A stretch of 63,913 bases of DNA, counting the filler, from Basidiobolus ranarum (taxonomy: Eukaryota), in the NCBI GenBank assembly GCA_040143965.1. It is 3 parts of 3 records of this genome, joined end to end, with 100 filler letters (N's around TTAATTAATTAA, not from the genome) between each part and the next. Parts side by side here need not be neighbours in the genome. Positions count along the whole stretch, not along the records: positions 21,645 to 43,124 come from JASJQH010000203.1; 2 more parts are not named here. One strand, written 5' to 3'. The notes under the pieces were generated by a model. The model was not told the origin of the DNA. It ran no database searches and was given only the letters and a program-made list of their open reading frames with translations. Positions 3,521 through 43,224 of this stretch are shown here, in pieces. Made by a program: the position numbers and the translations under genes. How positions within the stretch are numbered: position 1 is the stretch's first letter; each line of letters opens with the position of its first letter.

Positions 3521-4822
3521 TCATCGTACTTCAGGTGAGTCGTATGTGCCTTCTGGCGAATGCGTTGGCTCCATGAACGTATAGTTGGTATCACTTACTT
3601 GTCGTGCCACTACATAGCTAAACGCTATTGCGACATAGAGCAAAGCCCAGTTAATACCAATCACTGCAGTTGGGATAACTGCTTCGGCGTCCAAATACCA
3701 CGCTATGGCAGTGCCTGCTGATTGAATGGCCTTGTAGATTCCAGCATAGCGCGATAGAATCATCGCGTTATTAGTTAGAGTCCCTATTATCCAGTAGCAC
3801 CAGGTCTGAAGCATAGCATCGGAAAAGCCGGAGAGAAGAAATAATACCAACAGTGATGTGTATTGATCATCGAGGATGTCCACCATCTCAGAGTTGGCCT
3901 CATTGACATATTTGATCTCAACAAATAAACAGCCAAGCCATGTTGTAGTATAAAACACACCGATGAATGCAAGACCTATGGTAGCCCGTTTTGAGCGAAC
4001 AAACAGTGGGTTATCCAAAAACTGACCAAAAGTAAAGGCACCTAGCATTTGAGACGCCCAATAAAAGATATTATTGAAGGTACGAGTTCTTGGTGAAAAG
4101 AAAGTCCCATTCATATCGCCAAATCGATAACTATAGAACCAGTTGGAATAAAGAAACATAGGCCATAAGAACAGAAGTTTTCGGTTCGTAAATGCATGTA
4201 CGAGCTGTCGAAGTTCGTGAGCAATACTGAATCCAGTTTTGGAGGTTACTCGTGATCCGTCATCCCGGATAACTTGCGCGGGGGAAATGAGAAAATAGGT
4301 AATCATGACGCCAAAGGCCATTAGACAAAGGAAACTAATGGTAACAATTTGAAAGTCGAAATCAAGTAGTGGTAGAAAGCCTCCAAGAAAGGCACCGATA
4401 TTGAATAAAATCCAAAAGATTCCAAAAAAACGACCTTTTTGATTCTCCATAGGATATGAGGTGACAATCATACCCGCCGCGGCCCATAATAACGCTGACC
4501 CAAACCCGACTAACACGGAACCTGTAACTGTCAGCTCGGTATTCTCGATTTTGGTATAAGTCCAAAGTAAAAAAACATACAAGATATAGGATAGACCACC
4601 GACTATGATGGATATTCGAGGACCGAGCATGTTGTTGATCGATCCGGCGATAATCCCAAACACTGAACAACTAGCGTAGAGAGCAATAGTTATGTGTCGG
4701 GAGATCTCAGGGCTAAGTGTACCTATAGTGCCTATGCCGTAATAGACATTGTAGACGCCCACAATAAAGCAGCATACAAAGCCTAGGATTATGAGTTGAC
4801 TCAATGGATTTTCCCATCTCAT
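3521..4822 (-). CDS. UNC-93-like MFS membrane protein (DUF895 type)
   Basis: Many hydrophobic helices, ALLWAAAGMIVTSYP..KGRFFGIFW, YSNWFYSY, RTRTFNN.FYW, RYAGIYKAIQSAG. A short upstream exon (ATG ~4901) is possible. Confidence 0.85.
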   Translation of the reverse strand: MRWENPLSQLIILGFVCCFIVGVYNVYYGIGTIGTLSPEISRHITIALYASCSVFGIIAGSINNMLGPRISIIVGGLSYILYVFLLWTYTKIENTELTVTGSVLVGFGSALLWAAAGMIVTSYPMENQKGRFFGIFWILFNIGAFLGGFLPLLDFDFQIVTISFLCLMAFGVMITYFLISPAQVIRDDGSRVTSKTGFSIAHELRQLVHAFTNRKLLFLWPMFLYSNWFYSYRFGDMNGTFFSPRTRTFNNIFYWASQMLGAFTFGQFLDNPLFVRSKRATIGLAFIGVFYTTTWLGCLFVEIKYVNEANSEMVDILDDQYTSLLVLFLLSGFSDAMLQTWCYWIIGTLTNNAMILSRYAGIYKAIQSAGTAIAWYLDAEAVIPTAVIGINWALLYVAIAFSYVVARQVSDTNYTFMEPTHSPEGTYDSPEVR

Positions 4823-21544: not shown

Positions 21545-21644
21545 NNNNNNNNNNNNNNNNNNNNNNNNNNNNNNNNNNNNNNNNNNNNTTAATTAATTAA
21601 NNNNNNNNNNNNNNNNNNNNNNNNNNNNNNNNNNNNNNNNNNNN
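21545..21644. other. Assembly gap with TTAATTAATTAA filler
   Basis: N run with an embedded six-frame-stop linker at 21589-21600. Confidence 0.95.
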
Positions 21645-25732: not shown

Positions 25733-26252
25733 ATTCGAGAAGTATATGGGAGAGATTTATATTTAAGACGGCATGACTGCTGGATTTTATACGTTGCAGA
25801 TAGCTCACAAACTTTCCCACCCTACAAACCTATACTTCACACTCAGCGTAAAGACATCATTCCTCTAGCCTACTTCAATTTCTTTATCTAGAGCCCTCTT
25901 TTCAAACAATAACTTGTAGTAGACTCGGTATGCTTCCTCTATATCCTGATGTTCGGGTCAATCATTTCTAAATTGGTTGAACACTCTCATAATCTTCCCA
26001 GGAAAGATAGCAGAACGAGTTTCAATAGAAATGTGAGTATTTTGGAAATCTCGATATTTCCTGTAAAGTGACTAACAAATAGGTTTAGCATTGCTGCAGT
26101 ATATATAAATATGGTATTCTGGTCTTCGTTAGTAATATTTACCATAGTTGTCGAATTCTATGACTAAGCGATTAATCCAATGTTTCATATCCGTACCTAT
26201 GATCAGAATCATAAAGCAATTAATTCAATGTTTCATATCGAACACTCACAAT

Positions 26253-26447
26253 GACACTTTGTGGTCCAACTTGTATACTCTCTATGACAAACTAAGCCCA
26301 GAGTTCAAGGCTTTCCTAGAAAAGCTCACAGCAATCCACAGCGGTGGTGTTTTCATCAAGCTTGCTGAACTTTCAGGTAAACCGCTGACAAGAGAGATCC
26401 CAACTCACACCGAGCATCCATTAGTCTGGACAAATCCAATGACGAAT
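26253..26447 (+). pseudogene. 195-bp inverted duplicate of an internal part of the adjacent TauD gene
   Basis: Reverse complement of 27436-27630 with about 7 mismatches, all near the ends. Encodes DTLWSN.Y.LYDKLSPEFKAFLEKLTAIHSGG...TEHPLV. Confidence 0.95.
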
Positions 26448-27090
26448 GTACGTTTTATCTAAGCAGTAATTCTACTCTTTAGCTTGAGTTATTCTAATAA
26501 ATTAATAATTAAGTTGATACTACGACAAAGTAAACCTTTTACAGCGCAAGTGATATTCACAAAGTTTGGGTTACTATTCAGTATAATATAAATGAATTCA
26601 ATCACTCAAAGCAATAAAGAGCAATATATTGCAGTTTGTTAGATCTTTTATAAAGTAATATACGCTGCATCAAAAACATAGCACTATCATAAGAGTACAT
26701 GATATCATGCAAGTGTTTGTTCACTCTGCACGCCTCTAATTTCAGGTGGACCATACATCTTCAAATAAATCGGCACTTCAACAAGCATAGAGTAACATTT
26801 CTAAGCGCTATTTCTCAATTAAAGAATATAACGGTATTTTACTTAGGCTATCTAACAATAGGATGGTTTTGTGATGATTAGAGTAAACATTGGTCAACCA
26901 CTAGTCCGCTTAGACTGACTATCGATATCATAATTCTGAACAAGATAGGGTTGGGGTTGGGGTTTCGATATGTTCATATATTATTTTGAAATATCAAGTT
27001 TCAAGTATTTATTGAGGTGAGATAATGCAAGTAGTTAATGATTTATTGAGATTAGAAATAGTTTACTCCGCGTTATATTCTTAAATGGAA

Positions 27091-28140
27091 CTATTGCGTA
27101 AGTTGATCCAACTTGAGCTTCTCTAACAAAGCTTCAATTTGAGGTGCTTTAACTTCGGCTTCAGTGGTACTATTAGGATTAAAATAGGGTCTCTCGCCTA
27201 CAACTGTGACACGCTCTCCATATCTGAGGTATGGATAGTAGTCAAAGGTGGCATTATGCTGGGTACTGCGATTATCCCAAATCGCTACTGAATTAGCAGT
27301 CCAGGTCCAGCGCACTTGTGCTTCGTGTGTGCGTTGAAGATGCTTGAACAGGAAATCAAGAATAACATCCGATTCTACTGGAGTGAGTTCTTTGATTGAT
27401 TTGGTGAAGACTGCATTGGCAAATAATCCTTTCTGATTGGTCAGTGGATTTGTGCGGACTAATGGATGCTCGGTGTGAGTTGGGATCTCTCTTGTCAGCG
27501 GTTTACCTGAAAGTTCAGCAAGCTTGATGAAAACACCACCGCTGTGGATTGCTGTGAGCTTTTCTAGGAAAGCCTTGAACTCTGGGCTTAGTTTGTCATA
27601 GAGAGCATATGAGTTGGACCACAAAGTGTCTCCCCCAGTTACCGGAACTTGTTTCAGCTGGAGGATGGAGAATGAGGCTGGACGCTCCTCAAATGAGATA
27701 TCAGTGTGCCAATATCCATTGCGATAGAGCCCATCCACGGAAGCATGGGTTTTTCCAGCTCCAGATGGGATCACAATTTCAGGATGGGAATCGGGAGTTG
27801 GAATGAATGGATGAATATGGAGCTCACCCAGTCGTCGACCAAAGGCCACTTCATCCTCCTGACTAAACTCCTGTCCACGGAAGAATACAACACCACGCTC
27901 AGCAGCTAGTGCTAAGAGATCCTCAAGTTGAGCGTCTGTCAGCTTGGCTAGTTGTAAGCCTTCAATTTCAGTCCCAATGGAGGAAGTCAGATCTGTACGT
28001 TTAGTTGCCACATCCAACAAGTTCTTATATTCTGGGTGAGCATTGAATCCTTGGATATATTTAGGGTTGCGATACTCGTTGAAAGAGCTGTTGGAGATAT
28101 TGTCGGTGGAAGTAGTGTTCTCTTGGTTAGTGACAGTCAT
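27091..28140 (-). CDS. TauD/JLP1-family alpha-ketoglutarate-dependent (sulfonate) dioxygenase
   Basis: IGTEIEGLQL, AERGVVFFRGQ, WHTDISFE (HxD), GGDTLW, HPLVRTNP, WDNRSTQH, RVTV. Intronless. Confidence 0.95.
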   Translation of the reverse strand: MTVTNQENTTSTDNISNSSFNEYRNPKYIQGFNAHPEYKNLLDVATKRTDLTSSIGTEIEGLQLAKLTDAQLEDLLALAAERGVVFFRGQEFSQEDEVAFGRRLGELHIHPFIPTPDSHPEIVIPSGAGKTHASVDGLYRNGYWHTDISFEERPASFSILQLKQVPVTGGDTLWSNSYALYDKLSPEFKAFLEKLTAIHSGGVFIKLAELSGKPLTREIPTHTEHPLVRTNPLTNQKGLFANAVFTKSIKELTPVESDVILDFLFKHLQRTHEAQVRWTWTANSVAIWDNRSTQHNATFDYYPYLRYGERVTVVGERPYFNPNSTTEAEVKAPQIEALLEKLKLDQLTQ

Positions 28141-28824
28141 AGTGCTTAAGAAGTAGATAGTAAAACTTGGTTGATAATGAGAAACTCAGCGTTAGTCCGT
28201 ATATATACTCGGCCATGGAATAATGCGGAGGGTGTCGCCATTATTCGAGATATTGTCACAATCGTACTCAACTGTCACATCATCGTCTTTCGTATACAAG
28301 ATTCAATTCAATCCGATTTTTAAGTTGCAGTAGTTTGTTGGTGCCTACAATGAATCTAGTGATATAATTGGCTTATTGGGGTTGGGTGCAATGCTAACCG
28401 GATACCACAATCTAGTTGTAGATATAATTAGGTGATCATCGAGGTGAATTAGGATATCATTACTGTGACCTGAAGAAACCTGATTTAGACACCTGATTTA
28501 TATTCTAGACTGGGATATGCATTTTATATACAATGTCGAAGATGCTATTGCAGTCACTGATAAACTAGCTAATGAAATGTTTAAACAGTTGGTTTATTTA
28601 TGATAAAATACTCTTCTAAAGTCATTGAACGTACAGTCAGTATAGGAGATAGTGTTCATAAAGGTGATATACTCTATATAGTATACACAAGAACTCCATC
28701 TAGTATATACGCTACTAAGATAGTTGCGAGAACACAGTTAATTCAAAAGATAGTTGTGGGAACGCAGCATGCTAACTATATGGAATGACATCGAGCTAAT
28801 GTACAACGATAAAGAAGTCTTTTT

Positions 28825-30001
28825 GTTATTGATCTCACATCAAAGGTAATGAAACCACAAGGAAAAAGCAAGTCAATGAAGTTTAGATGTATGATATACA
28901 CTGAGGGTGTATGTGTGTTGGTGTTAAAGCAAAACCACAATACAAAGAAGAAGGGTGGTAGTGATGCAAAATCAAAGTCTCTTGCTTCAAAAGAAGAGTT
29001 TCAGTATGAGAAGAGTTGAAGGCTGGTGTTGGCAAATGTGCGATAATTGATCCTGGATGTCACAATTTGCTATACTGTATGCACAAAGAAAGTACTGCTG
29101 AAAACAAAATGATTTACTGATATACAAGCAACCAAAAAGTAGTTGAAACAAAATACAGAAAATTTAGGAAGCTCAGAGAGAACTTTAAGACAGACCAAGT
29201 CATCACAGCTGAGTGATCCCTATCACATTTGAAATCTTCAACTGCCAACAAAGACAAGTTTGTCAGGTATCTTCAAGAAAAAGTCAAAGTCACTCCAGTC
29301 ATGAGAACATATTACTCAAATGAAGATCACCCTGCAGGAGAAGACTGGTGTACCAGCGGTTTGTTACCTTTTAGAAAAATGAAGCTCTCAAGTTTCATTA
29401 ACCAACTATAATCAGACAAACAGCTTGCCAAGAATCTTTGAGAGAAGTTTGGGAAGGATACTATATTAATACATGGTGACTGGTCAGCTGGGAAGGAAAG
29501 TATCATTTGCCCAATAGAGGCGTTGGAATGAGAAAAATGATAGCCAAAGAAGGCTTCCAGCTATACCTCCTTGACGAGTTTAAAATTTCAAGCCTGTGCT
29601 ACTTGCAAGAACAGTGAACTGCAAAAGTTTCAAAAAGCACAGAATCTTAGACCATACAAAAGAGAAAAGTATCCTATTGTGGCCTTTTAAAGTAAACGCT
29701 TTTTATATGCAAGTAAAAAATTCCAACCTAATTTCTGTTCATGTGCCAAAACCAACAGTGTTTAAAAGTTGTGGCCAATACTACTGAAGATTCTCCCTTT
29801 CATCTTTGGAATCGTGACCTGGCTGCTACTTTAAACTTTAGACATATCCTTTTTAACTTGCGCTCAAATGGGGAAAGACATGAAGGTTTTTGCAGATTGA
29901 ACGAGCCTCTCTCCACTGGGTATAAAAGAAAGGGTATCTCGTCAGCTAGCAGCCAACCAACGAAAAAAGCAAATAATCCTGTGTGGTTATCGCTACACTA
30001 A
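28825..30001 (+). pseudogene. Decayed Fanzor1 (TnpB-like RNA-guided RuvC nuclease) gene, 5'-truncated, with a spliceosomal intron
   Basis: Stitched translation: MIYTEGVCVLVLKQN, IIDPG (D at 29049), LLYCMH, PFRKMKLSSFIN, IHGDWSAG, RGVGMRKM, LYLLDEFKISSLC-TC (E at 29576), RPY, GLLK|CQNQQC, LWNRDLAATLNFRHIL (D at 29816). Several stops and frameshifts. Confidence 0.88.
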
Positions 30002-30270
30002 ACACAATCGATATACTAAACATTTGATACAAAGTAAGTTTCTTTTACCATTAGTCCTCACTTATCTCCAATTTATTTTATGAAATGTCTAATTGATTTT
30101 TTTAATTCATCTAGATTAAGCACTGTAGGAATTATGATCACAGGGGATGAGCTCAACTTTGATGCAATCATTCAGGAATTCGTTTAGAACGTATCACAAT
30201 TCGAGAACCAACTCATAGTAGTGCTTACATTAAAGAACTAAAAGACAGTGGCTCATTAAGGCTGTATAAT

Positions 30271-33729
<3,459 letters not shown>

Positions 33730-43124: not shown

Positions 43125-43224
43125 NNNNNNNNNNNNNNNNNNNNNNNNNNNNNNNNNNNNNNNNNNNNTTAATTAATTAANNNNNNNNNNNNNNNNNNNN
43201 NNNNNNNNNNNNNNNNNNNNNNNN
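43125..43224. other. Assembly gap with TTAATTAATTAA filler
   Basis: N run. It must hide the 5' part of the chitin synthase gene. Confidence 0.95.

Follow-up and report, generated by a model that had tools for sequence, protein, structure and literature searches.

The stretch of Basidiobolus ranarum DNA analyzed here (63,913 nt, filler included, from assembly GCA_040143965.1; hereafter the window) carries a dead fragment of a Fanzor1 gene on its plus strand, extending by DNA homology to a Rhizopus copy from position 28807 to ~30010 (about 30010–30015). In our judgment a Fanzor1 element of the Rhizopus lineage probably entered an ancestor of Basidiobolus by horizontal transfer and has since decayed; passage out of Mucorales and into Basidiobolus is favored, although not proven. 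The intact gene would have specified a TnpB-like nuclease in which the RuvC domain cuts DNA at sites set by an omega RNA that the transposon encodes, a function established for its relatives. The Basidiobolus ancestor would have acquired the element, whole or in part, by horizontal means, and the present copy retains the C-terminal ~60% of the gene, namely the end of the WED domain, RuvC-I, -II and -III, the C4 zinc finger, one intron and a basic tail. The fossil is ordinary in itself; the new point is its host, a Basidiobolus carrying a Fanzor1 of the Rhizopus type, and a search of one library of papers found none naming Fanzor together with Basidiobolus.

A preliminary description of this DNA had recognized a TnpB-like Fanzor1 protein with a D-E-D catalytic layout and a C4 zinc finger, and that identification is borne out by matches to two structurally solved Fanzor1 proteins and by a family profile that detects all three reading frames. 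The peptides that it quoted (GKCAIIDPG, HGDWS, LLDEFKISSLC, CQNQQC, WNRDLAATLN and KRK...PTKK) are all encoded across the three plus-strand frames of 28500–30100. The RuvC-I Asp is the GAT codon at 29049–29051 and the RuvC-II Glu is the GAG codon at 29576–29578 within LLDEF, both in agreement with the Rhizopus copy, and the RuvC-III Asp, read directly from the sequence, is the GAC codon at 29816–29818 within WNRD. When translated with X at the stops, the read-through pieces 29010–29500 and 29480–30001 matched the Fanzor1 of Parasitella parasitica (PpFz1, PDB 9cf0) with E values of 5.8e-27 and 2.2e-13, respectively, and the three catalytic codons aligned with the DPG, IDEF and NRD motifs of that protein. 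The piece covering 28501–29019 matched 9cf0 with an E value of 0.012, the match beginning at 28825, and gave no match to the Fanzor1 of Spizellomyces punctatus (SpuFz1, PDB 8gkh), which was matched by 29010–29500 (E 8.4e-11) and by 29480–30001 (E 0.31). A profile built from 14 relatives scored E values of 2.4e-81, 6.8e-33 and 1.4e-20 on the three frames. On these comparisons, the match to Fanzor1 is far above chance. Homology at the DNA level proved slightly wider at both ends than the limits first assigned to the feature, 28825–30001.

Of the database searches proposed for the stitched peptide, the comparison with known fungal Fanzor1 proteins succeeded, as described above, and the Pfam search of seven single-frame fragments and two read-through pieces returned nothing relevant. 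Neither the fossil fragments nor the read-through pieces reached the gathering cutoff of PF07282 (OrfB_Zn_ribbon / Cas12f1-like TNB), a family for which one of six intact relatives gave a match, itself below cutoff (P0026, 16.8 bits vs a cutoff of 26.3, E 0.0079). The precomputed label PF26935.1 is attached to 35 of 40 relatives, and was never returned by our Pfam scans of relatives.

The lesions were mapped against a 577-residue Rhizopus arrhizus protein (P0004) and against L001, a contig from a metagenome with an ORF that matches this protein at 100% identity. The 5′ edge of the fossil (28807–29007) starts with homology at ~28807 (DKEV) followed by a 7-nt deletion, and the frame +1 portion from 28825 to 29007 corresponds to P0004 residues 192–252, the strands just before RuvC-I. 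After a net loss of 16 nt at ~29007, the RuvC-I segment (29010–29495, frame +3) covers P0004 residues 259–~421 and includes the RuvC-I Asp codon. Four premature stops, at 29118 (CGA to TGA), 29214, 29409 (CAA to TAA) and 29439, interrupt the coding sequence. A 1-nt deletion at ~29496 shifts the reading to frame +2 for the RuvC-II segment (29498–29599), in which the Glu codon lies, and the rest of exon 1 (29601–29691) follows a 2-nt deletion at ~29598, carries a 10-nt deletion at ~29679 and ends in ...CGLLK (AA|). Exon 2 (29743–29986, frame +2) contains CQNQQC, the RuvC-III Asp codon and the basic KRK...PTKK tail, which could plausibly serve as a nuclear localization signal, as first suggested. 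Its native stop codon, TAG, has mutated to TGG at 29984–29986, so that the next stop is the TAA at 29999–30001. Beyond it, a 3′ noncoding tail (29987–30015) matches the Rhizopus copy at 21 of 26 bases, and homology fades between 30010 and ~30035, at a point 59 nt before the start of an inverted-repeat arm in the Rhizopus locus. All four cysteines of the C4 zinc finger persist at the codon level (29597–29599, 29604–29606, 29744 and 29759, the last two within CQNQQC at 29744–29761), with the first pair split by the 2-nt deletion and the two pairs parted by an intron relic.

This relic, a 51-nt spliceosomal intron (29692–29742) with a 5′ GTAAAC, a branch-like CTAAT and a 3′ TTCAT, is homologous to a 59-nt intron at positions 4038–4096 of L001 (GTAAGT...CTCAG), with 44 of 51 aligned bases identical. 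The alternative that these 51 nt are an insertion was ruled out, the L001 intron being located at exactly the same site. The acceptor AG has become AT in the fossil (TTCAT vs CTCAG in the Rhizopus copy). The same site is of practical consequence elsewhere in the family: the public gene models of four relatives (P0015, P0023, P0024 and P0041) break off at HGLLR, on the site of the conserved intron, and do not include the RuvC-III motif, which suggests that predictors often miss the intron. That public models are often cut at this position matters for anyone mining the family, since such cuts would make intact nucleases appear dead in protein-only surveys.

The preliminary description judged the copy dead by 5′ truncation, stops and frameshifts, each of which has now been mapped. 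A search of all six frames of 26500–30300 with the family profile recovered profile positions 243–609 only; positions 1–242, about 40% of the protein, are absent. N-terminal remains were sought further upstream by tblastn and by the profile at E values up to 10, with two chance-level minus-strand matches as the only result (E 2.7 and 5.4). The window holds a single copy of the fossil, no repeats of 28186–30270 were found elsewhere within it, and by base composition the fossil cannot be separated from its flanks. A short way upstream of its 5′ edge, two imperfect direct copies of ~22 nt (AGATAGTTG.G.GAAC.CAG), 31 nt apart, were noticed by eye at 28718–28775. The copy cannot work because ~40% of the N terminus is missing, four stops and five frameshifts interrupt the remainder, the intron acceptor has been lost and terminal repeats are lacking; the codons of the catalytic residues remain, without a working protein. 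Since the codons for the three catalytic residues and for the cysteines have survived, one might suppose that the locus still yields a functional protein, whether by splicing, by recoding or from an alternative start. We give this next to no chance in view of the four in-frame stops, the five frameshifts in four frame changes, the lost acceptor and the absent REC/WED half, and no plausible intron set removes these lesions. A complete ORF with an N-terminal REC/WED half was not found in the fossil. Because only profile positions 243–609 are present, with four stops and five frameshifts, the fossil is filed as a pseudogene fragment of the Fanzor1 family, not as a functional member.

The relatives of this dead fragment lie in a different group of fungi from its host. 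Among 264 scored candidates, 40 were retained at E ≤ 1e-3, the best being R. arrhizus P0004 at 70% protein identity. All of the named relatives (37 of the 40) are from Mucorales (Rhizopus, Helicostylum, Pilaira and Thamnidium), and none is from Basidiobolus. The claim that the fossil marks a Fanzor family in this fungal lineage is thus not supported in the form in which it was made; the fossil is a member of the Rhizopus arrhizus/delemar Fanzor1 family. A metagenome scan yielded six loci, of which three are close to the fossil and were used for DNA comparison (L001, L004 and L005), two are 41–42% identical and entered as tree rows only (L002 and L003), and one is 24% identical and was left unused (L006). 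Contigs of viral origin supplied 15 Fanzor1-like loci at 23–28% identity. A HMMER scan of 1.84 billion representatives returned 463 proteins at E ≤ 1e-3, and the best match was an unnamed protein of 195 residues (P0284) that is 78% identical to the fossil and 73% identical to P0004. P0284 and a second short, unnamed protein (P0314) are closer to the fossil than is any named Rhizopus protein, and they grouped with it (SH-aLRT 91 and 84, not starred) in a tree made from 14 of the 40 relatives and six of the 150 listed representatives. The first 40-odd residues of P0284 are unrelated, and alignment of P0314 with P0004 leaves an internal gap; with this odd structure, both look like ORFs of other decayed copies from the same sublineage as the fossil.

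The genes on either side of the fossil are of another origin. On the left, an intact gene for a TauD/TfdA dioxygenase (27094–28140, minus strand) is 91% identical to B. ranarum and 44% identical to Rhizopus delemar at the protein level; its best 10 matches are all from Basidiobolus (91–55%), the next best reaches 48%, and Rhizopus 44%. On the right, an intact multi-exon cullin-1 gene (30271–33726, plus strand) has clean exons that are 98–100% identical to B. ranarum and 64–77% identical to Mucorales, and one of its exons matches B. ranarum at 100%, B. meristosporus at 96% and Mucorales at 76–82% identity. Housekeeping genes of an ordinary kind make up the large ORFs of the window: transketolase, chitin synthase, peptidases, and factors of the CSL and STE12 types. 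Continuous sequence joins the fossil to TauD, no more than 670 nt away, and to cullin, no more than 260 nt away. These two neighbors are ordinary genes of a genome like that of B. ranarum, a label that for the flanks derives from the names attached by sources to the best matches. Two further features of this neighborhood were noted. A second TauD-like piece (26181–26471, plus strand) lies on the strand opposite to the intact gene; it shares 68% identity with residues 149–245 of the TauD protein from B. ranarum and probably derives from a paralogue. In addition, a canonical-looking short intron (GTAAGT ... CTAAT ... TCTAG) at 30036–30117, past the fossil and ahead of the cullin start codon (ATG at 30271), suggests that the cullin 5′ UTR may begin inside or adjoining the fossil, and raises the question of whether the fossil now provides promoter or UTR sequence.

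This context bears on the possibility that the fossil is an assembly artefact, in which a Mucorales contaminant read or contig was misjoined into a Basidiobolus scaffold. Such an error would account for the taxonomic mismatch, and the window does contain four 44-nt runs of N, taken to be masked stretches or gaps. However, the N runs occur as one pair in each of the intervals 21545–21644 and 43125–43224, with 12 nt between the members of a pair, away from the fossil and 5.4 kb or more from the nearest flanking gene; there is no N within 21645–43124, and no break in the sequence separates the fossil from TauD or cullin. Moreover, the fossil is truncated and has decayed in place, and its overall identity of 77–79% to Rhizopus-like DNA implies that it is not a fresh contaminant. 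We therefore regard a misjoin as very improbable.

The case for transfer rests on how little the fossil has diverged from its Rhizopus counterpart. Over 1254 aligned columns, the DNA of the fossil and that of L001 are 77.6% identical. By category, identity to L001 is 84.1% at codon position 1, 85.8% at position 2, 75.9% at position 3, 86.3% in the intron and 80.8% in the 26-nt tail, and the Nei-Gojobori method, applied to 355 codons, gave a dS of 0.45 and a dN of 0.15. Basidiobolus belongs to the phylum Basidiobolomycota and Rhizopus to Mucoromycota, and unselected sites of a pseudogene cannot keep such similarity across a phylum split of the established depth. Given that known depth, the similarity at third positions, in the intron and in dS points to horizontal transfer of a transposon, not to vertical descent. 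Against this reading, the dN/dS ratio between the fossil and L001 is 0.34, no higher than the 0.39–0.40 between Rhizopus-like copies; neutral drift over most of the fossil's existence would have been expected to raise it.

The same data weigh on the alternative that the fossil is a vertical relic of an ancient Fanzor1 family already present in the common ancestor of Basidiobolus and Mucorales. Table 1 of PMC3627910 shows a wide distribution of Fanzor1 among early-diverging fungi, and the root of our tree is not fixed statistically, both of which would be compatible with such a relic. Nevertheless, it would have to be a pseudogene that is still 76% identical to the Rhizopus copy at third positions and 86% in the intron, with a dS of 0.45, while its intact neighbors are far more diverged as proteins (TauD 44% to Rhizopus; cullin clean exons 64–77% to Mucorales). 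Furthermore, the fossil is nearer to the R. arrhizus proteins (71% identity) than are those of R. microsporus (65%). Vertical descent is for these reasons a most unlikely account, and the fossil probably reflects transfer between fungal phyla.

Phylogenetic analysis speaks to the direction of this transfer. In a tree of 41 rows, the fossil was sister to 15 R. arrhizus/delemar proteins (SH-aLRT 99). A second tree had 32 rows, was rooted on six homologues from giant-virus contigs and omitted 17 of the 40 relatives (partial, near-duplicate and long-branch rows); here the fossil was sister to eight R. arrhizus/delemar proteins (SH-aLRT 98), and R. microsporus, Helicostylum, and Pilaira with Thamnidium branched off successively outside this pair, an order that favors a Mucorales donor. 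The trees were made by a quick method with SH-aLRT as the measure of support and without bootstrap, and the branch leading to the fossil is long (0.3). An approximately unbiased (AU) test did not reject a topology that unites the 21 named Mucorales rows to the exclusion of both fossil and outgroup (p 0.12, with lnL lower by 11.5), an alternative that was named after the tree had been seen, and the protein tree alone consequently fixes neither the root nor the direction.

The transfer may instead have taken another route: the R. arrhizus/delemar lineage could have acquired the element from a donor resembling Basidiobolus, or both could have received it from a third party, for instance a virus or a fungus outside the present sampling. 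The root left open by the AU test would allow this, as would the position of the fossil as sister to the R. arrhizus/delemar clade instead of nested in it, and the grouping of P0284 and P0314 with the fossil, which could represent a non-Rhizopus sublineage; a third party is conceivable in that giant-virus contigs carry Fanzor1-like genes. On the other hand, successive Mucorales groups lie outside the pair formed by the fossil and R. arrhizus/delemar in the virus-rooted tree, and every named relative comes from Mucorales, none from Basidiobolus. As to a viral vector, the 23–28% identity of the viral homologues means that no close vector is present among the 15 loci. We consider these other routes unlikely, and movement from Mucorales to Basidiobolus, although not proven, remains the favored direction.

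An extension of the favored account supposes that a whole Fanzor1 sublineage, to which the fossil belongs, passed from the Rhizopus lineage to Basidiobolus and multiplied there, that P0284 and P0314 derive from further Basidiobolus copies, and that an intact nuclease lacking the Fanzor RuvC insertion (FRI) survives with its omega RNA in some Basidiobolus genome. We put forward this scenario tentatively, as one with a small but real chance of being correct. If true, it would represent a dated natural transfer of an RNA-guided nuclease element across phyla.

The element that would have carried the gene can be glimpsed in the Rhizopus copy. In L001, the gene lies between inverted arms at 1721–1855 and 4446–4580 that are 88.9% alike over 135 nt and that lengthen to ~440 nt by way of L004. 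Because homology in the window ends ~59 nt before the right arm, the fossil has evidently lost both ends, and terminal inverted repeats with a 9-bp target-site duplication, as in MuDr-like carriers (ROr-4), were not found in the window. Upstream of the gene, L001 has an ORF resembling tyrosine recombinases (Phage_integrase, E 6.4e-4) and a faint similarity to zf-RVT (E 0.0065), both below cutoff; together with the inverted repeats, these suggest that the L001 region is a mosaic of mobile elements. At L001 2417–2430, an N-terminal exon (MEPPLK..., from 2211) is thrown out of frame within a run of T, which may explain the downstream start of the public P0004 protein and could be either a real lesion or an assembly error. 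Searches for an omega RNA gave no support from Rfam, from a single fold or from a three-sequence consensus: Rfam returned no matches for L001 and L004 and one chance-level match (E 0.41) for 28100–30400 of the window, the fold of L001 4290–4400 had a z score of –0.04, and in a consensus drawn from three sequences only, one of 16 pairs was compensatory.

As a lead to a new nuclease, the locus offers little: this copy cannot work, the Fanzor1 genes of Rhizopus that are its living relatives were catalogued long ago, and one related enzyme from Mucorales has been characterized. Its value is evolutionary, as a clean trace, open to dating, of the probable passage of a transposon with Fanzor1 from one fungal phylum to another. 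This trace keeps its intron and lies in a gene-rich region of the host, and it bears on how RNA-guided nuclease elements spread among eukaryotes.

Bacterial TnpB of the IS200/IS605 elements, such as ISDra2 TnpB, has the RuvC D-E-D and zinc-ribbon layout that is also found in the family of the fossil. This family differs in being eukaryotic, intron-bearing and larger, and in being carried by a TIR-type element instead of IS200/605. SpuFz1 belongs to the same family and has the same domain order as the fossil, but it is far more distant and comes from a chytrid host. Fanzors are described as carrying introns and nuclear localization signals (PMC10530073), and the motif D-X(125,275)-[TS][TS]-X-X-C4-X(5,50)-RD (PMC3627910), which TnpB also has, is matched in spacing by P0004 (D272, TSS at ~450 and RD at ~519, the last two positions counted by eye).

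The preliminary description also supposed that intact copies could be an uncharacterized nuclease, a supposition that, as worded, is not supported in view of earlier work: Rhizopus Fanzor1 was catalogued in 2013, and the Fanzor1 of Parasitella has a known TAM, a cleavage assay and structures. Xu et al. (2024, PMC11423790) report that PpFz1 is a DNA endonuclease guided by an omega RNA of 75 nt and that its TAM is 5′-ATN; its structures are deposited as PDB 9cf0–9cf3. It is the best solved relative of the fossil, to which the RuvC-I DPG, the Glu of LIDEF, the CxxC...CxxxxC finger and WNRD align residue for residue. PpFz1 differs from the truncated and broken fossil in having an FRI of ~100 residues that binds cyclophilin, which is absent from both the fossil and its nearest Rhizopus relatives; the alignment passes from residue 988 to residue 1092 of the 9cf0 chain with seven query residues between, and an insert at this site was seen in P0041 alone among 14 aligned relatives. 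In Rhizopus oryzae RA 99-880, four Fanzor1 families (ROr) have been described, one of which, ROr-4, resides in a MuDr-like element (Bao and Jurka 2013, PMC3627910). The Fanzor1 genes of R. arrhizus/delemar (the 577-residue P0004, RO3G_11178 and others) are the closest named relatives of the fossil, at 70–71% protein and 77.6% DNA identity, and they share with it the intron site and the C-terminal basic tail. Unlike the fossil, however, these copies occur in a different phylum, where they are numerous and mostly open, and the Rhizopus copy in L001 sits between long inverted repeats that the fossil does not have.
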